From Patescibacteria group bacterium (lineage in GTDB: Bacteria > Patescibacteriota > UBA1384 > XYA2-FULL-43-10 > 1-14-0-10-43-13): a stretch of DNA of 64,000 bases. Of this stretch, positions 2,114 to 49,802 are shown one piece after another. Every line of letters begins with the position of its first letter. Positions within the stretch are counted from its first letter, which is position 1. The notes beneath the pieces were generated by a model. It worked only from the letters and a program-made list of their open reading frames with translations, ran no database searches and was not told the origin of the DNA. The position numbers were made by a program, and so were the translations under genes. Location of the stretch: assembly GCA_041649155.1 (NCBI GenBank), contig JBAZNP010000001.1, forward strand, positions 3,581 through 67,580, in the 5' to 3' direction.

Positions 2114-2206
2114 AAATAGTATGATAAAAAATTCAGTCAAAGAAAAACTTAGGAAAGTATACCACTTTGGCTTTTTTTTATCAACACATCGGAAGAAAAA
2201 TTCGAG

Positions 2207-2235
2207 TTGCAACCAGCTAGTCCTTTGGTTATAAT
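2207..2235 (+). promoter_or_regulatory. Sigma70-type promoter: TTGCAA, 17 nt spacer, TATAAT
   Basis: ttgcaa at 2207-2212, a 17 nt spacer, then tataat at 2230-2235. An aaggag RBS sits 8 nt before the ATG at 2266. Confidence 0.6.
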
Positions 2236-2265
2236 CTAATCAAGCTATTTAACTAAGGAGAAATT

Positions 2266-2697
2266 ATGGAGAACAATGTTGACACCATCATCGGTATTAA
2301 CGTTATTTTAAAAGGAAATTTGAGAAACAAGGGTTCAATTCAAATTAATGGTACAGTCGATGGCGAAGTGAAAAGTGATGAAAATATAAACATCGGAGAA
2401 ACCGCAAAGATTAATGGACCTGTGGTTGCTAAAACAATCGAAATATCCGGCGAAGTGAAAGGCTTAGTAGAGGCTACAGAACGGCTGGAAGTTAATCCAA
2501 CAGGTAAAGTGTTTGGTGATATAAATGCTAAGAGCCTCATTATAAAGCAGGGCGCTAAATTTATTGGTAAAAGCATTATGCCTAGTTCTGGCAATACTGA
2601 AGTAGCTAAAACTGAAATAAAACCAGAAGGAACCAAAAAGGAAATCTCTGTTGATGAAAAAGCCGAAGACAAATTCGGATTTTTTGGAAAAAAATAA
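2266..2697 (+). CDS. Bactofilin (polymer-forming cytoskeletal protein, DUF583/CcmA family)
   Basis: 143 aa with repetitive beta-helix-like strands (INGTVDGEV, INGPVVAKTIEISGEVKG, GDINAKSLIIKQGAKFIG) and a K/E-rich tail, typical of bactofilins. Confidence 0.7.
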   Translation: MENNVDTIIGINVILKGNLRNKGSIQINGTVDGEVKSDENINIGETAKINGPVVAKTIEISGEVKGLVEATERLEVNPTGKVFGDINAKSLIIKQGAKFIGKSIMPSSGNTEVAKTEIKPEGTKKEISVDEKAEDKFGFFGKK

Positions 2698-2752
2698 TTA
2701 TTAGTTGTCAGTTGTCGGTAAATCAGTTATCAGTCTTTTGTTTTAATAAGAC

Positions 2753-2780
2753 TGTGAGCTGTGAACTGTGAACTGTGAAC
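2753..2780 (+). repeat. Tandem heptamer repeat ctgtgaa x3 (with ctgtgag)
   Basis: ctgtgagctgtgaactgtgaactgtgaac lies directly upstream of the 2768/2791 start. Related agttgtcagttgtc repeats occur at 2705 and 8271. Confidence 0.8.
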
Positions 2781-3565
2781 TTGACGACGCCATGTATTAT
2801 TACATATTCGATATAAAAAAATTTGCAAAAAGCTCACAGGTTGAAAACCTCAAAAACTATCTTGGCGGTCTTGGCATTTCTGGAGAATTTACATATCCTA
2901 CTCCGGCTCAAAATGTTGAAGAGTTGGTTGATCTTGGGCTAAGCAAACAATATACTACCATTGTCGCAATTGGCGGAGACGAGCTTGCCAATATAGTTGC
3001 GGGCAAATTAGTCGGCAGAAAAGAAGCTATGGGTTTTATACCGATAGATGCTTCTCCATCTCTTTGTCAACTAATCGGTAGCAATAGTTGGAAAGAAGCT
3101 TGTGACATCTTAAGGTTCAGAAAACTGAACGAAATAAGAATTGGAAAGACAGCATCACAAAAATATTTTCTAACCCACGTAGATTTGCAAATTAAAAATC
3201 CTACTGAAATCACTCTTGAACTTAAAGATTTTATTATTCAAACCACAGCAACAAGCCTGATGATTTCTAACTTTAATCCCTCAATTAAAAAAATAGGCGA
3301 TGATTTTTTGGATATTGTAATGACTAGCACTCATCCAACAAGTTCAATTTTATCTAAAATTAATATTTTTCGGGGCAAAAAAAGAGAAGATGAACTTGCA
3401 AATTCACTCTTAAGAGCAAGATCCTTGCGAATTTTTACGAAAAATCAAATTCCTATCAGCGCAAGTAATTATACTTTAGCAAAATCACCTCAATTAATAG
3501 AAAGTACCGACGAGTATTTACGCTTAATTACGACCAAAAAAGCAGAAATTTCTCCGGAAAAGTGA
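2768..3565 (+). CDS. Diacylglycerol kinase / NAD kinase-like lipid kinase (DAGK_cat-like); the true start is probably the ATG at 2791
   Basis: VAIGGDELANIVAGKL resembles the GGDG(T) motif of the DAGK/NAD-kinase catalytic fold. The protein is 265 aa. Confidence 0.4.
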   Translation: MNCELDDAMYYYIFDIKKFAKSSQVENLKNYLGGLGISGEFTYPTPAQNVEELVDLGLSKQYTTIVAIGGDELANIVAGKLVGRKEAMGFIPIDASPSLCQLIGSNSWKEACDILRFRKLNEIRIGKTASQKYFLTHVDLQIKNPTEITLELKDFIIQTTATSLMISNFNPSIKKIGDDFLDIVMTSTHPTSSILSKINIFRGKKREDELANSLLRARSLRIFTKNQIPISASNYTLAKSPQLIESTDEYLRLITTKKAEISPEK

Positions 3566-4442: not shown

Positions 4443-5519
4443 TTATTCATTAAGCCAAAACCAGAATTGATTTTTAAGCTCCTCTTGTAATTCGTGGGTA
4501 CTGGCGTGTGATAAGGCGCCAAGATACGAATTTAATGATTGGTCAAGCACATTCCTACTAATTAACCCTGCTTTAAATTCAGCTACTCTTTTTCTTAATT
4601 TCGCGAAGATTCTTCTTTTAGTTTTGGTTCTTAAAAGCCTATGATTAGGAAAAACCACATAGCCTAGAAAGTCAATCCCTTGCCTGATTTTTCGAATTGA
4701 AACTTTGTTTGGATGAAGTTTTAATTTTAAATTTATTTCTAGAAAGAATTGGATTTCAGGGATTAAACTTTCGAGATAAGCATGATCATTTGAGACGATT
4801 ACAAAGTCATCGGTATATCTGGCATAATGTCTGATTTTTAGTTTGTGTTTAATAAACTGATCAAACTCGTTCATATAAATATTGGCAAAAAGCTGGCTAG
4901 TTAAATTTCCGATTGGCAGTCCAGCAGAATTGCTCTCTCTCTCTCTCTCGAATAGCCCCAGCTGCAGAGGAACAGTTTTGCTATAACTGCCGATAATCCC
5001 ACTGAGCAGCCTCATTGTATTTTGATCAGATATTCTTTTTTGAATTATGTTTAATAAAATTTCATGGTCAATCGAGTCAAAAAACTTTTTAATATCGCAC
5101 TTCAAAACATAACAAGGCCCTGTATTATTCTTGCTTACTTGTCGAATAAACTTTGCTAAGCAATCTACGCCCTTATGATTTCCTTTACTAATTCGGCAGG
5201 AAAATGAACTTGAGATGAAAGTCGGCTCGAATATGGGATTGAAAACTCTAAAAATAGCATGGTGGAGCACCCTATCGACAACCGTTGCTTTGTGAATTTC
5301 TCTTAGTTTCGGATCGGTGATAAAGAACGAATAGTAGACACCGTGTTTGTAAGTGTGATACTTTAGATTTCGGTGAAGCTCTAAAGTATTCTCTTCCAGA
5401 TTCCACTCAAATTCCAAAACATCCTTTTTCTTCAGCTTTCCCTTTTTAAATTCATCCCAAGCCAAAAATAGATTGTCGAGAGAAATAATTTGTTCAAAAA
5501 TATTAGTATAAAATTTCAT
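4443..5519 (-). CDS. Diversity-generating retroelement reverse transcriptase
   Basis: 358 aa with RT motifs, including the YTDDFVIV (YxDD) box and an LPIGNLTSQLFANIYMNEFD palm region. The size fits DGR RTs, and it is adjacent to Avd and TR. Confidence 0.9.
   Translation of the reverse strand: MKFYTNIFEQIISLDNLFLAWDEFKKGKLKKKDVLEFEWNLEENTLELHRNLKYHTYKHGVYYSFFITDPKLREIHKATVVDRVLHHAIFRVFNPIFEPTFISSSFSCRISKGNHKGVDCLAKFIRQVSKNNTGPCYVLKCDIKKFFDSIDHEILLNIIQKRISDQNTMRLLSGIIGSYSKTVPLQLGLFERERESNSAGLPIGNLTSQLFANIYMNEFDQFIKHKLKIRHYARYTDDFVIVSNDHAYLESLIPEIQFFLEINLKLKLHPNKVSIRKIRQGIDFLGYVVFPNHRLLRTKTKRRIFAKLRKRVAEFKAGLISRNVLDQSLNSYLGALSHASTHELQEELKNQFWFWLNE
4933..4949. repeat. (CT)8 / (GA)8 dinucleotide microsatellite inside the RT coding sequence
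   Basis: tgctctctctctctctctcg on the + strand encodes ERERES on the minus strand. Confidence 0.9.
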
Positions 5520-5527
5520 ATTCTCTC

Positions 5528-5562
5528 GTCATTCCGGACTTGATCCGGAATCTATATAAATA
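5528..5562 (+). repeat. Palindromic MITE-like element, family Q (gtcattccggacttgatccggaatctatataaata)
   Basis: Near-identical copy at 8520-8554, with a compensatory G:C versus A:T pair in the stem. It lies in the divergent RT/avd promoter region. Confidence 0.8.
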
Positions 5563-5579
5563 ATTATGAAGGACAACTC

Positions 5580-5927
5580 ATGCAAGAATTTGACATCCCG
5601 ATTTTTAAGAAAACTTATGATTTCTACAAAAATTTCCATTTACTTAGAGCTAAGATATCAAAGCAGGATCGTTACACTGTTTTTCAAAGGTGTGAAAATG
5701 TCATACTCGATTTGTTGGAAAGAATTTTAGAAGCAAGCCAATTAAGCAAGGCACAGAAACTGCCTGTGCTTGAAAAAGCCAGCTTAAAATTGAACTTTCT
5801 TAGAGTATTTTTGCGACTAATGAAAGATATAAAATCGATTGATCTAAAAATCTACGCTGGTTTTGAGCAGAATGTCGACGAAATCGGAAGAATGCTCGGC
5901 GGTTGGATTAAATCTACTAAAGAATAA
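5580..5927 (+). CDS. avd: DGR accessory variability determinant (Avd, four-helix-bundle protein)
   Basis: 115 aa. The C-terminus EIGRMLGGWIKSTKE matches the Bordetella phage bAvd C-terminus EVGRILGSWIARVNRK. LNFLRVFLRLMKDIK parallels LAMLRFWLRFLAGIQ. Confidence 0.85.
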   Translation: MQEFDIPIFKKTYDFYKNFHLLRAKISKQDRYTVFQRCENVILDLLERILEASQLSKAQKLPVLEKASLKLNFLRVFLRLMKDIKSIDLKIYAGFEQNVDEIGRMLGGWIKSTKE

Positions 5928-6033
5928 GTTCGCTTCGCTTCTTTTTACGCACTGATTTTTGACTAATATATCTTGTAATAAAAGAGGAAGCGCTCATTTT
6001 CACAAGCATTCCCTCTTCGCTCAGGAGAGACTT

Positions 6034-6166
6034 CGGGAGGAAGCCAGAGGCAGACCCATAGTTGTCGTTCGTATTGTCAACCCTGTTGGTGTCGAACTTG
6101 ACCTTGTCGTCGTTGAAGTTGAAGTACGGAGCCTTGTCGAACTCACCATCGGCCTCAGAATCTTTG
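6034..6166 (-). other. DGR template repeat (TR)
   Basis: 133 bp that align without gaps to 6609-6741. All 21 mismatches are T on the + strand here (A on the minus, coding strand) against C or A in the other copy. In frame it encodes N-rich AAC codons (NFNDDKVKFDTNRVDNTNDNY). Confidence 0.9.
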
Positions 6167-6469
6167 CTTTTGTCCATCTATATTCACTGGAAATTGAGCT
6201 TTACTTCCACTTAGCGCAGACTATATGCTCTCTTCCCTGTATTTCATTTGGCAGCAGCTCGATATGTATTCACCGAACATCCGCACCAGACAAAAACAAG
6301 CAGTATCTCCTCAACCAGGTGCACTCTTAGAAACCTTGGTCGCTAAGATTCTGACCTTTCTATTGATTTGAGATTTCGGCGGCAGCAATCCCTGCCTACC
6401 GGCAGGCAAGCGTAAACTACTACACATTAGCCTATTTTCATCGAAAGTATACACTAGCACAGCTTAATA

Positions 6470-6520
6470 TTGCAAAAAAAATGTAAAGAAAACAGGCTAT
6501 TCGTATGGTGGCGAATAGCC
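6470..6520 (-). terminator. Putative rho-independent terminator of the DGR target gene
   Basis: 9 bp stem ggctattcg/cgaatagcc with an 8 nt loop. On the minus strand it is followed by the U-rich run tgttttctttacattttttttg. Confidence 0.45.
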
Positions 6521-6532
6521 TGCGCGTAGCGA

Positions 6533-6545
6533 CCGCCTTCGGCGG
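6533..6545 (-). other. GC hairpin downstream of VR (candidate DGR homing hairpin)
   Basis: ccgcc ttc ggcgg lies 64 nt 3' of the VR/IMH end. DGRs commonly need a GC stem-loop in this position. Confidence 0.4.
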
Positions 6546-6602
6546 ACAGGATCAAGTGGCAAAGAGCCAAAAGATCCAAGGGATCTAAGAAACAAGGAAC
6601 AA

Positions 6603-7508
6603 CTACTGCGGGAGGAAGCCAGAGGCAGACCCACAGCTGCCGCTCGCAATGCCAACCCTGTCGGTGTCGAACCCGACCCTGACGCCGTCGAAGCCGAAGT
6701 ACGGAGCCTCGTCGAACCCACCAACGGCCCCAGAATCTTTGAACTCATCTCCTGCCATGTCAGCGTGGAGCTGCTCCCAGCGAATGAATCGCTCAGGGTG
6801 AGTCAGCATGATGGCGCCAAACGCGACGCTTCCGAGTCCGAACTCGTTGGTCACGAAGACCTCGCGAGCCCTTCGTACAGATCTGCCACGATGGCGCATG
6901 CCGAGCTGGGCAGCGATAATCAGAATATCGCCTTTCTGTGTCTCGGCGATCTTCTCAAGTGCTTGCGCGGTACGGGCGAGAAGCCTCAGTTGAGCCGGTG
7001 TAATCTGCCCATCACGATAGTTGTAGAACGATCGCATCTCTGCGATCTTGACATGGATGAGCTGGATTGCTCTGCAGTACTTCTCGTCCCGGTCAGTGAC
7101 CTCGGGGAAGTGCTTCAGCGCTATGGCCTCGACAGCGGGGACAGCGAACCATCCTTCTGCTCCCTTAGGGAGCTCGGGCAGGTTCTTCGCGTTCAGGAAC
7201 GCCTCAGTCGGGTCAAGTTCGAAGATCTTGGCGATTGCCGCGATCTGTTCCTCAATTGGCTTCGGTCCCTTATACTCCGGCGGGTAGACGTAGCTGGACG
7301 CCACTTCCTCGTTGGCGAACTGGTTAGTGGCAGAATGCTTCTCGATGGCTTTTCTTATGTCATCTTGAAGTGCGCCACCATTCTCGTTAAGACGCTGTGC
7401 TCGATCCTCGTCGAGCTGAGCCTGGTTGTAGACAGCCTCAAAGAGGCCAGTTGCGTGGAGACCTTTCGGGTCTCTGGACGTGATCAATGCTTTCTGCATC
7501 GTCATCAT
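6603..7508 (-). CDS. DGR variable target protein, with VR at the C-terminus; the ORF is open back to 7565 but an RBS supports a start at 7508
   Basis: ggagga RBS followed by ATGATGACGATG at 7508. The C-terminus is ...FDEAPYFGFDGVRVGFDTDRVGIASGSCGSASGFLPQ. The gene is conspicuously GC-rich compared with its neighbours. Confidence 0.8.
   Translation of the reverse strand: MMTMQKALITSRDPKGLHATGLFEAVYNQAQLDEDRAQRLNENGGALQDDIRKAIEKHSATNQFANEEVASSYVYPPEYKGPKPIEEQIAAIAKIFELDPTEAFLNAKNLPELPKGAEGWFAVPAVEAIALKHFPEVTDRDEKYCRAIQLIHVKIAEMRSFYNYRDGQITPAQLRLLARTAQALEKIAETQKGDILIIAAQLGMRHRGRSVRRAREVFVTNEFGLGSVAFGAIMLTHPERFIRWEQLHADMAGDEFKDSGAVGGFDEAPYFGFDGVRVGFDTDRVGIASGSCGSASGFLPQ
6609..6741 (-). other. 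DGR variable repeat (VR), including the IMH at its 3' end
   Basis: Counterpart of the TR. The 25 bp stretch cgggaggaagccagaggcagaccca (6609-6633) is identical in TR and contains no A on the coding strand, which is IMH-like. Confidence 0.9.
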
Positions 7509-7534
7509 CCTCCTTGTGTATAGGATTTGCCGTT

Positions 7535-7595
7535 CCTTGTGTGGAACAAGCACTCTATTGACCATATTTTGATCAACAAGGTGCTTGTTCCAAGG
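7535..7595. promoter_or_regulatory. Inverted repeat (ggaacaagcac ... gtgcttgttcc) in the promoter region of the DGR target gene; candidate operator
   Basis: 11 bp perfect arms (7543-7553 and 7581-7591) with ccttg/caagg extensions and a 27 nt spacer, 35-87 nt upstream of the start at 7508. Confidence 0.4.
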
Positions 7596-7723
7596 TAATT
7601 TTAAAGTTCAATTTACGTTTAATATTATATCATAAAGTGAAAAATAAATCAAGTGGTTGACCAAAGTAACGTTTTGTGATATTTTAATAAGCGTAAAAAT
7701 AAAAAGTTTTCAAGGAGTTAAGA

Positions 7724-8607: not shown

Positions 8608-8949
8608 ATGAGAGTTAAAACAGGCGTAGTCAGAAGAGCTAAGCATAAAAATATATTAAAAAAAGCAAAAGGCTATATCGGACGAAGAAAATCCGTTTTT
8701 AAACTTGCAAAACAAGCTGTAATTAAAGCCGGTCAATATGCTTACCGTGACAGAAGAAACAAGAAAAGAGATTTTCGCTCTCTTTGGATCGTGAAGATTA
8801 ATGCTGCTGTCAGAGAATTTGGCATGAGCTATTCAGAGTTCATTAAAAAACTGTCTGATGCTCAAATACAGATCAACAGAAAAATATTGGCTGACTTAGC
8901 CCAAAACGAACCAGAGACATTTAAAGCGATTGTAGAAAAATTAAAATAG
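8608..8949 (+). CDS. rplT: 50S ribosomal protein L20
   Basis: [61 protein letters not shown]... Confidence 0.9.
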
Positions 8950-9057
8950 CATCCGGTATGGGCTATTTTATCCCGAAGGCACAGCTGAGGGATCTCAATT
9001 AAGATCAATTGAACTAGATATTAAAAAATCCGAGAAAAATCTCGGATTTTTTAATTT

Positions 9058-9128
9058 GTCATCCCCGCGAAGACGGAGATCCACAAAAGAAAATACTATC
9101 AGTAGATTCCCGCCTTCGCGGGAATGAC
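9058..9128. repeat. MITE-like element, family D (gtcatccccgcgaag...cttcgcgggaatgac), with terminal inverted repeats
   Basis: Related copies at 10676-10733 and 39063-39170 share the agacgg(a/g)gatccac and agtagattccc segments. Confidence 0.75.
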
Positions 9129-9137
9129 AGTGATTGA

Positions 9138-9539
9138 TTATGTTTTTTTGTATATGCTTGACTTAATCATATCTCGAGCAAATATCAAACAACCAGTCAT
9201 TATTAAAATATCTGCCAGATTGAAGGATGGATATTGAAGGATTGAGATATAATCCACACTACCACCATAAATCAATCGATCGACAATGTTTGATATCGAA
9301 CCAGCAGTAATTAGTATAAATGAATTAGTTGAAATTATTTGTTTATTTTCTAAAATTATTATTGAAAATAATATTATTACCGAAAAGAATATCGATAATA
9401 AATTATTTCCGAACAAACCAAATATAAAGCCGCTATTAATGTTGACTTCAAAATATTTCTGTACTAAAAATGATATTGCCTGAAAAACCAAAATTAATGC
9501 AGCAATTATCATATAGATTTTATTTGATATCTTTCTCAA
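9138..9539 (-). CDS. lspA: Lipoprotein signal peptidase (signal peptidase II)
   Basis: Four TM segments plus NIVDRLIYGGSVDYISI and PSFNLADI, which correspond to the conserved LspA blocks. Confidence 0.65.
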   Translation of the reverse strand: MRKISNKIYMIIAALILVFQAISFLVQKYFEVNINSGFIFGLFGNNLLSIFFSVIILFSIIILENKQIISTNSFILITAGSISNIVDRLIYGGSVDYISILQYPSFNLADILIMTGCLIFARDMIKSSIYKKT

Positions 9540-9550
9540 GAAAAAAACTA

Positions 9551-9895
9551 TTATCTTCTTTTCCTTTTAGCATTTCCATTGCAGGAAACACAAAGCTCTG
9601 CATAAGGCATTATCTCAAGGCGTCCATTTTCAATGTTGGACTTACATTTGGCGCACTGACCATACGTTCCATCGTCAATCGCCTTCAAGGCCTTGTTTAT
9701 TTTCTTAAGCAAAAACTCCAGCTGATCATCGAGCGAAAGATTGCTTTCATAATCTGCTAACTCCTGAATATTGTCCTCTTCATCAGACCCATAATCAGGA
9801 TATTCTTTTATTTTTTTTATTTTTTCTTCAATTCTGGCTTTTTCTTTGAGCATCAACTCTTTTTGTTTTTCCAGAAAATTAACTGATAATTTCAT
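9551..9895 (-). CDS. DksA/TraR-family C4 zinc-finger protein
   Basis: A coiled-coil N-terminus followed by CAKC...(17)...CVSC, in the usual position upstream of lspA. Confidence 0.65.
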   Translation of the reverse strand: MKLSVNFLEKQKELMLKEKARIEEKIKKIKEYPDYGSDEEDNIQELADYESNLSLDDQLEFLLKKINKALKAIDDGTYGQCAKCKSNIENGRLEIMPYAELCVSCNGNAKRKRR

Positions 9896-10631
9896 AGTCT
9901 TCTCCTTTTGTTCGCGATTTTAGTAATAATAATATTATCGTTATCAATGCAGCCAAGAATATAACCAGACTGAAGAACTGACCAAATGATAATTTCCATA
10001 AAATTGCTTCTTCATTTCTCCAGAAATCAATAATAAATCTACCTCCTGAATAAAGCAATAGCGTTAGAAAAAATACTAATCCTGGAAAAACTTTTTTCTT
10101 TTTCAGAGCCACAATTAATGCAATGGCAAAAACCAAAAGGCACAAGAAAGCCTCATAAAGCGGAGTTGGCAAGCCATTTCTGAATGAGCTCAAACCAGTA
10201 AAATTTGCTGCGTTATAGTAGTCGCCGGATATTATGTCTCCTATTCTGGCGCAAAATATTCCCACAGGAAGTCCAACAGCTAACGCATCAAACCATTTTA
10301 AAACCGGTTGTTTTTGAATTTTTAGAAAGATCAAAACTGTTAATCCACCCAAAACAAACCCACCATAAGAAACCAGTCCACCCTCCCAAAGAAGAATCAG
10401 CTGAGACAGACTATTAAACTGTTCGGGATATAGTATAAAATATGTAATTCTGGCGCCCACTATTCCAAATAAAACCGTGTAGAGAATATTGTTAAAAAGA
10501 AAATCTCCATCCAGATCTTCTTTTTTAGAAATTAAATATGCTATCAGGGCCGCGAAAACAATGCCCAAGACCATTAGAACCCCGTGCGAATAAAAACTTA
10601 GATTTCCTATTTTAAATAAGATCGGATACAT
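9879..10631 (-). CDS. lgt: Prolipoprotein diacylglyceryl transferase
   Basis: MYPILFKIGNLSFYSHGVLMVLG... N-terminus, GARITYFILYPE and GGLVSYGGFVLG blocks, and a polytopic membrane topology. Confidence 0.75.
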   Translation of the reverse strand: MYPILFKIGNLSFYSHGVLMVLGIVFAALIAYLISKKEDLDGDFLFNNILYTVLFGIVGARITYFILYPEQFNSLSQLILLWEGGLVSYGGFVLGGLTVLIFLKIQKQPVLKWFDALAVGLPVGIFCARIGDIISGDYYNAANFTGLSSFRNGLPTPLYEAFLCLLVFAIALIVALKKKKVFPGLVFFLTLLLYSGGRFIIDFWRNEEAILWKLSFGQFFSLVIFLAALITIILLLLKSRTKGEDYEIIS

Positions 10632-10675
10632 TTTGTTTTCTTTTAAGAATAATATTTAGGATTTATGCATTTGAT

Positions 10676-10733
10676 GTCATCTCCGTGTAGACGGGGATCC
10701 ACTAATAGTAGATTCCCTTCTTCAAGGGAATGA
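10676..10733. repeat. MITE-like element, family D copy
   Basis: gtcatctccgtgtagacggggatccactaatagtagattcccttcttcaagggaatgac. Confidence 0.75.
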
Positions 10734-10866
10734 CAGTGGATGACTTGCAATTTGTAATTATCATCAGAGAGAATCGTTAATCTATCCCTAAATATTATAG
10801 CCTGTTATTGACCAATGTTGTCAAGGATTGCTAAAATATATTAAGAAGAAGTAAAAAAAGGATCAA

Positions 10867-11562
10867 ATGGCTGATAAGTTTAAAGACGACGACAAATTAA
10901 ATACTAATTCAGAAGAATTAAACAACTTTGAAGCCGAAGATAATCCGGCTAAAGATTTTATGTACTTTATCTTTGATCTATTGAAAACCGGTTTGATAGT
11001 ATTTATCATTGCCTTTTCTTTAAGATACTTCGCAATTCAGCCATTCATTGTTGACGGTGAATCTATGATGCCAAATTTCGTTAATAACGAGTACATTTTA
11101 GCTGAAAAAGTTTCATATCTAACAGGAGAACCCAAAAGAGGTGATGTTGTGGTTTTCCGCTATCCAGGCAATCCCAATGTTAGCTACATTAAAAGAATAA
11201 TTGGACTTCCTGGTGAAACTGTTACGATTGCCAATGACTCAGTCAAGATCATCAACAAAGACAATCCCACAGGGGTAACTCTTGACGAGAAATACATACC
11301 CAAAACCACTCTGACTCTTGCAACGGATGCAGAAAACGGAACTCTTCAAAAAACGCTTGGCGATGATGAGTACTTTGTAATGGGAGATAACCGCCAACAC
11401 TCTTCCGATTCAAGAGAATGGGGTGTGCTTCCCAAAGCAAATATTATAGGACGAACATGGCTAACGATTCTGCCGTTTGATAAATTCGGCGTTCAAAAAA
11501 GAGTAAGTTACGCCTATTTACCTTTGAGATTTTTTGCGTCTCTGATTTCTTCCAACCGATAG
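10867..11562 (+). CDS. lepB: Signal peptidase I (S26 family)
   Basis: DGESMMPNF (Ser box), IKRIIGLPGETV, and GDNRQHSSDSREWG (GDNR box). The 3' end overlaps der convergently by 45 nt. Confidence 0.85.
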   Translation: MADKFKDDDKLNTNSEELNNFEAEDNPAKDFMYFIFDLLKTGLIVFIIAFSLRYFAIQPFIVDGESMMPNFVNNEYILAEKVSYLTGEPKRGDVVVFRYPGNPNVSYIKRIIGLPGETVTIANDSVKIINKDNPTGVTLDEKYIPKTTLTLATDAENGTLQKTLGDDEYFVMGDNRQHSSDSREWGVLPKANIIGRTWLTILPFDKFGVQKRVSYAYLPLRFFASLISSNR

Positions 11563-39926: not shown

Positions 39927-40003
39927 GCGCCCATAGCTCAGCTGGTTAGAGCGTCGCATTGACATTGCGGAGGTCAGAGGTTCGAGTCCCCTTGGGCGCA
40001 CCA
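39927..40003 (+). tRNA. tRNA-Val (anticodon GAC) with encoded CCA
   Basis: Cloverleaf: acceptor gcgccca/tgggcgc, D-arm gctcagctggttagagc, anticodon stem tcgca/tgcga with loop ttGACat, T-arm agagg ttcgagt cccct, then a cca. Confidence 0.9.
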
Positions 40004-49095: not shown

Positions 49096-49802
49096 TGGTG
49101 GAGGTGGCGGGTAATGCTCCCGCGTCCAAAAGGTTAAGAACACATCGTCTACAAGTTTAGTTCCGGTTGAAAATTTAAATATTGGATAAAATCGGAACCA
49201 AAAACCAATATTCTACCTCTAGTAAATCTTAAGATAAATTGCTAGAGAATCAATAAATCAGCAACTCGAATTATGACACCCGTTAATCTTCAGTCGAGTA
49301 GCCAAAGAACGGATGGTTGTCGCAATTAAGCAGCAACTGGCGCAAAGCTAGGCATGCTGAAAGCAGCTTTTACTTTGCTAACAAATGAATTTGCATTTGT
49401 AATTTTTGAAAGTTTATAAAGTGGCTTTCACACTTACTTGCAGATATGTTTTTAAAGTCCTTCTGTCGAAGCTAATACACCCCCACAACAAGCATAATTC
49501 TATAACATTTATCTCCTCACGTCAAGATCGTCTTCGGGGACGGTTCTAAATTGAATACAGATTTAGTGATAATTTAATATTTACTAATCTTTTCTTAATA
49601 TTCCTCGCCGCATAGTGAAAATAAGAAAAAAATATAATGCAAAAAAGAGATTTAAATATCACCAAAATAATAAATAGTCACCTTATCGCCAATCATGAGA
49701 TCATTTTAGAACCGTCCCCAAGATGGTCATTCAAAATAAACGCATTGAAACTAATGCATAGCACAAATATTCATTTTTTCAATACAGAATTAACAATTTT
49801 TA

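Follow-up and report, generated by a model that had tools for sequence, protein, structure and literature searches.

A GC-rich hypervariable target gene of a CPR-type diversity-generating retroelement in a Patescibacteria group bacterium

Organization of the retroelement and its target gene

The DNA described here is a 64,000-nucleotide stretch of the genome of a Patescibacteria group bacterium (GenBank assembly GCA_041649155.1, contig JBAZNP010000001.1), referred to below as the window, and our subject is a GC-rich gene near its left end that a first-pass annotation had flagged for its composition and its unusual C-terminus. The gene is the hypervariable target (i.e. it encodes the variable protein) of a diversity-generating retroelement (DGR). 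The minus-strand block at 4443-7652 is a complete DGR of the canonical and ordinary kind found in ultra-small bacteria of the candidate phyla radiation (CPR, or Patescibacteria), and as such the locus belongs to a type of system already known. The element includes, all in the minus-strand orientation, a reverse transcriptase (RT) gene (4443-5519), a template region (TR; 6030-6166), and the target gene (6603-7499), the last 45 codons of which form a variable region (VR; 6605-6741). The 358-residue RT matches RVT_1 (6e-22) and phrog_1423 'Reverse transcriptase' (1.6e-121), and is 33% identical to Brt of phage BPP-1, covering 98% of its length. The accessory variability determinant gene, avd (5580-5927), lies between the TR and the RT gene yet on the plus strand, opposite to the target, TR and RT, and its product matches NF033474 DivGenRetAVD (81.4 bits, cut-off 80), PF22296 bAvd (61.2 bits, cut-off 40) and phrog_3206. 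The same placement of avd is seen in two related cassettes (L002, 6997-7344; L083, 1794-2141; L numbers denote loci carrying relatives of the target gene, and P numbers their products).

The TR is a 137-nt repeat of the VR, to which it is 85% identical, and all 21 mismatches between the two fall at TR adenines (17 A to G, 3 A to T and 1 A to C) and at codon positions 1 or 2. Confinement of mismatches to TR adenines is the signature of adenine-mutagenic retrohoming. Adenine is present in 26 of the TR codons that template the 45-codon VR, 20 residues are changed in the present VR, and the VR repertoire has an upper bound of ~10^21.7. Invariant residues (F284, F290, F292, V297, F299 and V304) are interleaved with the variable positions, which are templated by Asn, Lys and Asp codons, and the VR columns are hypervariable across the family alignment. 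An adenine-free 24-nt block, GGGTCTGCCTCTGGCTTCCTCCCG (6609-6632, minus strand; TR copy at 6034-6057), is the same in the VR and the TR, which diverge beyond it; it encodes the invariant last strand GSASGFLP and is a candidate initiation of mutagenic homing (IMH)-like element. There are no further TR copies, no second VR and no paralogue of the target gene within the 64-kb window. The TR is intergenic apart from a spurious 86-residue open reading frame (ORF; 5917-6177, minus strand) that imitates the target C-terminus, and which looks like a by-product of the TR/VR similarity.

The target gene stands out sharply in composition. In 900-nt windows over the 64 kb, mean GC content is 0.366 (sd 0.037) with a maximum of 0.572 at 6601 and all others at or below 0.46; in 300-nt windows, GC is 0.54-0.61 within 6451-7500 and ~0.30-0.40 in the flanks. 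The GC-rich island extends in full from 5850 to 7500, with GC contents of 0.51 in the TR, 0.44 in the TR-VR spacer and 0.57 in the target. At the first, second and third codon positions (GC1, GC2 and GC3) the target has GC contents of 0.63, 0.42 and 0.67, compared with 0.45, 0.35 and 0.31 pooled over the 32 other ORFs of the window, whose individual GC3 values are 0.22-0.40; the RT and avd genes each have a GC3 of 0.35. The first-pass annotation's picture of a GC-rich gene among AT-rich neighbours is thus confirmed (57% versus 37% GC) and describes the sole such island in the 64 kb, with synonymous positions showing the effect most strongly. Its impression of a very short and non-canonical C-terminus is not upheld, as the 45-residue VR is close in length to those of Mtd and TvpA and is laid out as described for Mtd, TvpA and AvpA (see below). 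Three sources of the island were considered for the window and rejected: codon bias of highly expressed genes, with the ribosomal protein genes having GC3 values of only 0.21-0.32; adenine-specific depletion of the coding strand, with third-position A and T both roughly halved; and a structured RNA, with no Rfam match in the region. The only Rfam matches at the gathering threshold in the window are a tmRNA (49096-49484, minus strand) and a tRNA (39927-40000, plus strand).

Mechanical ORF calling gives a 320-residue target reading frame at 6603-7565 on the minus strand. The true start is most likely M23 at 7499, giving 298 residues plus stop, because a ribosome binding site (RBS) sequence AAGGAGG lies 9 nt upstream of it, homologues are ~297 residues long, the relative P0004 begins at the equivalent MQKAL, and in L083 the upstream frame is broken. 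The segment 7500-7565 is accordingly a likely untranslated leader; in L083 it lacks the ATG and is put out of frame by a 22-nt insertion, yet the nucleotide sequence including a promoter-like site and a hairpin is kept, and GC content upstream of 7500 drops to the host level. The promoter-like site (7624-7652, minus strand; TTGATT-17-TATAAT with a TG) is a consensus match that is kept in L085 and L083. Between it and the RBS is a stem-loop (7542-7592, minus strand), an inverted repeat with 23-nt arms that are 83% complementary; it is also kept in L085 and L083, where the changes in its upper stem are paired, and may be a regulatory element.

Downstream of the VR stop codon there is directly a YTTG ('CTTG') repeat array with a period of ~8 nt (6549-6602, minus strand; motif starts at 6596, 6589, 6580, 6571, 6563 and 6556), followed by a GC hairpin, CCGCC-GAAG-GGCGG (6532-6546, minus strand), which recurs in many loci of the family. 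A terminator-like hairpin of 12 pairs followed by a T-run (6492-6523, minus strand) is the predicted end of the target transcription unit, and a further promoter-like site (6446-6475, minus strand; TTGCAA-18-TATACT), which is a consensus match, lies upstream of the TR.

The genes around the cassette are ordinary chromosomal ones, including those for a bactofilin and a C39-like peptidase, infC-rpmI-rplT, lspA and lgt. The cassette recurs in the order target-TR-avd-RT, with 75-90% nucleotide identity, in the nearest longer relative, L083 (P0004, 78% amino acid identity), where der directly follows it in place of the C39-like gene of the window. The L083 RT is called as two ORFs (2202-3324; 219 and 143 residues), reflecting either a frameshifted and possibly inactive RT or an assembly error. 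Other loci are arranged differently: in L002 (7395-7525 / 8762-8892) and L003 the target and VR are inverted relative to the TR and RT, with all mismatches at TR adenines (19/19 and 20/20). In L079 two tandem family genes (8943-9725 and 10001-10873) both match the TR at 11301, with mismatches at adenines in 15/15 and 14/14 cases, and from the sequence these appear to be two targets served by one DGR. Tandem family copies are also present in L013, L016, L027, L047 and L048.

The target family and its predicted fold

The target protein has no match in Pfam, NCBIfam, PHROGs or PDB sequences, and 42 aligned members of its family give no Pfam match, to FGE-sulfatase and DUF1566 or otherwise, even at E≤10. 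The first-pass annotation had noted the lack of sequence hallmarks of the C-type lectin (CLec) or formylglycine-generating enzyme (FGE) type, correctly so, and had been able to place the N-terminal 250 residues in no family it could name; there is indeed no named family, but the protein is not an orphan. Homologues number 2,544 proteins at E≤1e-3 in a 90%-identity collection and 1,506 representatives in a 50%-identity library, with 345 representatives of the latter at E≤1e-30, and the top 120 matches have 63-91% identity, query coverage of 79-100% (mostly 93-95%) and E values from 1e-116 to 1e-188. A scan of GTDB species-representative genomes gave 193 confirmed family matches, of which 80 records were kept, and these are from Patescibacteria/Parcubacteria wherever the label is reliable. 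Some of the metagenome-assembled genomes carrying the family (L004, L006, L009, L010 and others) are labelled uncultured Gammaproteobacteria or Candidatus Saccharibacteria, with one Margulisiibacteriota and one Bdellovibrionales; these labels look unreliable, or the bins contaminated. By sequence comparison the family is thus very large, unnamed and stand-alone, and appears confined to CPR/Patescibacteria, with a typical member of ~297 residues ending in GSASGFLPQ.

The family core of ~240 residues begins near residue 57 of the 298-residue protein and is preceded by an optional N-terminal three-helix extension that is missing in the shorter members. Among the best 150 representatives there are no domain fusions other than one tandem duplication, the longest relative (P0142), in which two family domains are joined. 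Conserved polar motifs (RHRGxSVRRAR, NEFGLG, LTHPER and GDEF) lie upstream of the hypervariable tail. A transmembrane segment was considered and rejected, the maximum 19-residue hydropathy being 1.52 and lying within a predicted buried helix, and hydropathy shows no hydrophobic core at the N-terminus. Lack of a recognisable transmembrane or conserved domain is typical of the targets of CPR 'clade 2' DGRs (Roux et al. 2021, PMC8144416), of which the window locus is one, and the family is a 'known unknown' among these targets.

Among 85 family copies, a TR whose mismatches are adenine-specific is present at the locus of 31, and an RT at that of 37. Approximately half of the copies have neither RT nor TR within 10 kb (L001, L005-L008, L010, L015, L018, L020 and others), and these keep the GC excess described below, many also keeping the CTTG array and hairpin. 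Such copies may have been retired as targets, or may depend on a DGR acting in trans.

A confident full-length model was obtained from AlphaFold2 with an alignment of 42 sequences (pLDDT 94.3, pTM 0.84), and a domain-only model (residues 127-320) has a pLDDT of 91.5. The full model has elements E116-121, H123-130 and H137-155, followed by strands 192-198, 245-253, 264-270, 275-281 and 289-295 with helical inserts, an order compatible with the CLec arrangement b1-a1-a2-b2-b3-b4-b4'-b5 plus inserts, in a comparison of element order rather than of spatial arrangement. The variable codons cover model residues 254-289, or 257-289 if only the codons changed in the present VR are counted, spanning strands 264-270 and 275-281 and the adjoining loops, and GSASGFLP forms the final strand, 289-295. 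This layout matches that described for DGR variable proteins, in which the VR occupies the last strands, the last strand is invariant and encoded by the IMH, and invariant aromatic residues stand among the variable ones (PMC5006420). The sub-threshold Foldseek list for the full model consists mostly of CLec/FGE-fold entries (PvdO, EMS16, BDCA2, CarF, TvpA, several FGEs and PorKN), and in the domain-model list the best superpositions, none of them significant, are with Bd2740-C, rhodocetin and TvpA. From the models, the VR face is inferred to be a diversifiable ligand-binding surface on a scaffold resembling a strongly diverged CLec fold.

Mtd of Bordetella phage BPP-1, the prototype DGR variable protein, is a phage tail-fibre protein with an FGE-type CLec fold. 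The BPP-1 element resembles that of the window in having a VR of ~134-137 nt as the 3'-terminal part of the gene, adenine-specific substitutions, an RT and an Avd, and an invariant 3' segment followed by a GC hairpin with a 4-nt loop. The BPP-1 hairpin (GGGGCC-GAAA-GGCCCC) comes right after the mtd stop codon, whereas in the window the 54-nt CTTG array intervenes; BPP-1 avd is co-oriented with its neighbours while that of the window is inverted; and mtd has no GC3 excess over brt (0.86 versus 0.82), unlike the window target. Mtd and the window target, a stand-alone cellular protein, are unrelated in sequence (hhalign probability 0.14%). TvpA of Treponema denticola (PDB 2Y3C) is also a cellular DGR target of ~280-300 residues with a C-terminal VR, and it appears in the weak Foldseek lists over 44-45 columns with a root-mean-square deviation (rmsd) of 2.8-3.1, which is not significant (E 2.7-3.2); its FGE-sulfatase sequence signature is missing from the window target. 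AvpA, from Nanoarchaeota-related archaea, could not be classified by sequence until its structure was solved, and proved to represent a new CLec subclass with inserts, with its last strand encoded by the invariant IMH and a VR of 27 residues, about half the length of those of Mtd and TvpA (PMC5006420). It is likewise a small stand-alone DGR target from an ultra-small symbiont, but its VR is internal with 46 residues following, whereas the 45-residue VR of the window is terminal. Two of the AvpA motifs (GxxVVVYAH, HPxxxPFxG and RFxGV) are resembled by GDILIVAAQ and THPER of the window target by eye only, with no profile match.

Several results weigh against a CLec-like scaffold. Neither model finds a significant Foldseek neighbour in PDB or BFVD, the best E values being 1.2 (full model) and 0.48 (domain model); the top matches of the latter, GHKL ATPases, are spurious (rmsd 16-19 Å) and lend the fold no support; and the assignment would draw on element order and a weak Foldseek enrichment. 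The same lack of significant neighbours favours a scaffold that is not of the lectin type at all, but a new fold with an independently evolved C-terminal diversifiable hairpin. Profile searches at E≤10 match no PDB chain, AvpA, Mtd and TvpA included, and the many conserved polar residues (in RHRGxSVRRAR, THPER and GDEF) suggest a functional site of the scaffold's own. With the VR layout and the order of elements as described above, we regard this alternative as possible but doubtful, and our verdict from the models is that a CLec-like VR module is probably borne by a scaffold belonging to a new CLec subclass or having a new fold. The novel scaffold suggested by the first-pass annotation therefore stays in contention beside the CLec-like reading: two confident models have no significant structural neighbour, CLec targets included, while the layout of the VR is CLec-like.

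GC-richness of CPR targets and its possible origins

All 89 family copies compared (from 82 other loci and the window) are GC-richer than their flanks, with a mean excess of 15.7 points (range 2.7-30). In 78 copies GC1, GC2 and GC3 average 0.62, 0.43 and 0.69 compared with 0.50, 0.37 and 0.41 in flanking ORFs, and GC3 is higher in 75 of the 78; RT and Avd genes at 35 loci are close to their flanks in GC3 (differences of -0.009 and -0.003). The excess is spread evenly over the gene, with A and T equally depleted at third positions and C up more than G, and its size in copies with and without a nearby DGR (0.27 versus 0.24 in GC3) is taken as the same. Target GC3 tracks host GC3 with a slope of 0.69, the offset being ~+0.27 at host GC3 below 0.6 and +0.08 in hosts at 0.6-0.8.

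The excess extends beyond this family. JGI metagenomes were scanned with an RT profile, and de novo TR/VR detection yielded 44 pairs, including 34 targets of at least 180 residues in 12 BLAST groups. One group is the family of the window target, and Pfam domains are lacking from most of the others, apart from one AAA_5 fusion and one DUF5701. Beside CPR-type RTs, 28 of the 34 targets exceed their own RT by more than 0.1 in GC3, with a mean of +0.25. One metagenome locus (L146, contig Ga0116157_10001725) has a CPR-type RT and a 649-residue AAA_5 target ending in LGFRLAVVF that shows no GC3 excess (0.21 versus 0.18). The excess is absent in five phage DGRs (BPP-1, Hankyphage p00, crAss-like cr52_1, Psychrobacillus phage Perkons and Bacillus phage BalMu-1), three of which (cr52_1, Perkons and BalMu-1) are in AT-rich genomes. 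GC-richness, including that at synonymous sites, is therefore a property of the target class and not of the window locus, is common to most small CPR DGR targets of unrelated families, and is not shared by RT and Avd. A GC content typical of the organism's DGR targets is what the first-pass annotation had named as counting against its reading, and the composition of the gene is indeed typical of CPR DGR targets.

Substitutions at TR adenines are themselves biased, with 64-66% going to G (G 375, T 117 and C 72 at 31 GTDB loci; G 381, T 119 and C 93 at 34 metagenome loci). Misincorporation at TR adenines has been described as roughly equal (Roux et al., PMC8144416). The bias was rejected as a CPR-specific trait, phage Perkons having the same one, and selection for Gly, Asp and Ser is a possible cause.

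Target genes and RTs have only partly correlated histories, with protein distances correlating at r=0.56. In the pair L024/L028 the targets have 98% protein identity and 0.95 identity at four-fold sites, compared with 70% and 0.32 (saturated) for the adjacent RTs, and in L028/L059 the discordance is reversed. Sliding nucleotide identity between L024 and L028 is 95-99% over the target body (L024 9960-10700), 63-80% in the syntenic flanks, 81-86% in the TR and 63-75% in the RT, and the high-identity block has sharp edges at the gene start and at the VR, where identity is only 0.76-0.79. This drop and the hypervariable VR columns of the family are indirect hints of ongoing diversification. In six further pairs of ~20-kb loci the target is the sole long high-identity alignable segment (81-90% identity), other alignments being only TR/VR cross-matches and two short stretches of 69-75% in L003/L004; flank GC differs within these pairs by up to 0.12 (0.39 versus 0.51) while target GC stays at 0.60-0.64. 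The 5' breakpoints of the shared segments vary from the -35 box to the RBS and the 3' end is just past the terminator, and overall, target genes alone are 83-99% identical between otherwise dissimilar genomes. These mosaic histories point, at the sequence level, to partly separate descent of targets and RTs. Polarised substitutions in 16 close pairs run net toward AT, with 437 changes from G or C to A or T and 298 in the reverse direction (240 and 162 at third positions). Distant family pairs are near saturation at four-fold sites (0.39, with 0.29 expected at random), and therefore there is no general nucleotide-level (synonymous) constraint.

The reading that we favour, and consider probable, is that the window gene is a canonical CPR-type DGR target from a large CPR family whose GC-richness is a class trait kept up by horizontally circulating target genes. 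Because target genes alone are 83-99% identical between dissimilar genomes and recent substitutions run toward AT, we infer that targets circulate as gene-sized units of ~0.9-1.2 kb, extending from the RBS or promoter through the terminator. The circulating pool would have a GC3 of ~0.7-0.8, matching the GC-richest CPR hosts, and copies landing in AT-rich genomes, that of the window included, would decay slowly toward AT and then be replaced. GC-biased gene conversion at a recombination-prone target may add to the effect, and either biased conversion or selection may contribute to target GC. Some points count against this reading. In such a source-sink model many unrelated target families must have had GC-rich donors, and a donor lineage was not found; the per-site substitution rates imply an equilibrium GC3 of ~0.6, above the host value, which parsimony bias could also give; and the metagenome comparison uses automatically called target ORFs with the RT as host baseline.

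The best of the alternatives is that GC is held in place within each genome and nothing is imported, either by GC-biased gene conversion at a recombination hot spot or by selection on the mRNA for stability, structure, or slow translation via rare GC-ending codons. The nearly constant offset of target over host GC3 (slope 0.69, and +0.27 below a host GC3 of 0.6) fits such a force, as do the implied equilibrium above the host value and the mosaic RT/target histories, which would reflect frequent recombination. However, recent substitutions run net toward AT (437 versus 298), the near-saturated four-fold sites of distant pairs leave no general synonymous constraint, and the low GC3 of the ribosomal protein genes shows that high expression does not lift GC3 here, so that we consider an in-genome force rather unlikely as the explanation.

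A one-off recent import of the target or of the whole DGR cassette from a GC-rich donor, making the island a local accident, is improbable, and as a sufficient explanation is already contradicted. The island does have sharp edges (GC3 0.67 versus 0.31), and the L083 cassette, at 75-90% nucleotide identity, sits in a different genomic context, but RT and Avd of the same cassette are at host GC3 and the same excess recurs in 75 of 78 family copies, from more than 80 species-level genomes, and in 28 of 34 metagenome targets. The horizontally acquired cassette envisaged by the first-pass annotation thus fails for the cassette, RT and Avd being of host composition, and survives in spirit for the target gene alone, which appears to move horizontally. 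DGR-linked mutation enriching G+C over the whole target, for example if the RT occasionally copied target transcripts of both senses with errors biased from A to G and the gene were then converted by the cDNA, would account for an excess bound to CPR DGR targets as a class and missing from their RTs, and for the preponderance of G among TR-adenine substitutions; but at third positions the depletion is as large for A as for T and the gain is larger for C than for G, the same excess is found in family copies with no RT or TR within 10 kb, and Perkons has a similar G bias without a GC3 excess. We know of no off-template activity of this kind, with an RT copying whole target transcripts, and consider this most improbable. 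That the island hides a second function, either a structured RNA or an antisense gene, is scarcely credible: the long antisense ORF (252 residues, 6765-7523, plus strand) looks like a by-product of high GC, its frame being open over at least 80% of the gene in merely 42% of family copies, and the region is without an Rfam match, four-fold sites are near saturation between distant members, and the sense protein is conserved and folds at pLDDT 94.

Elements downstream of the variable region and implications

In the first 80 nt after the VR, family copies have a mean of 2.7-2.9 CTTG motifs compared with a background of 0.37 (~7-fold), and 34-42% of copies have at least four, compared with 0.3% of background windows. 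VRs of unrelated CPR target groups likewise have the array downstream, and there is none behind the TR or behind the VRs of BPP-1, Hankyphage, cr52_1, Perkons and BalMu-1. By these sequence counts it appears to be specific to the CPR-type DGR clade, and by analogy the hairpin at 6532-6546 is the likely counterpart of the BPP-1 hairpin/cruciform after the VR. In the literature examined, which left out Paul et al. 2017, we found no description of the CTTG array, of a GC3 excess throughout the family and across families, or of horizontal exchange of targets in gene-sized units.

It is tempting to see the small CPR DGR targets as a distinct gene class that is GC3-rich (~+0.25 over the cognate RT), is exchanged as single transcription units, and is marked by the CTTG array and hairpin. 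The three traits could be linked mechanistically, with the array and hairpin defining a mobile or convertible module that the DGR machinery of CPR bacteria, or a recombination system partnering it, would recognise, and movement or conversion of that module being GC-biased; the scaffold itself would have a new fold or belong to a new CLec subclass. We offer this as a speculative proposal that is, taken as a whole, unlikely to be correct in all its parts.

DGRs are especially common in CPR bacteria, which form a large share of bacterial diversity, and a role in attachment to host cells or in defence has been proposed for CPR DGR targets; the literature examined says of these targets only that they have no recognisable domain. 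For one very large family of these targets the window locus yields a confident structural model and a defined variable surface. The GC3 signature could serve in searches for CPR DGR targets, as well as for orphan copies, and it speaks for horizontal traffic of targets at the level of the gene. To our knowledge the homing mechanism of the CPR DGR clade has not been studied so far; if the CTTG array is a homing or mobility signal, it would constitute a new cis element for this clade.

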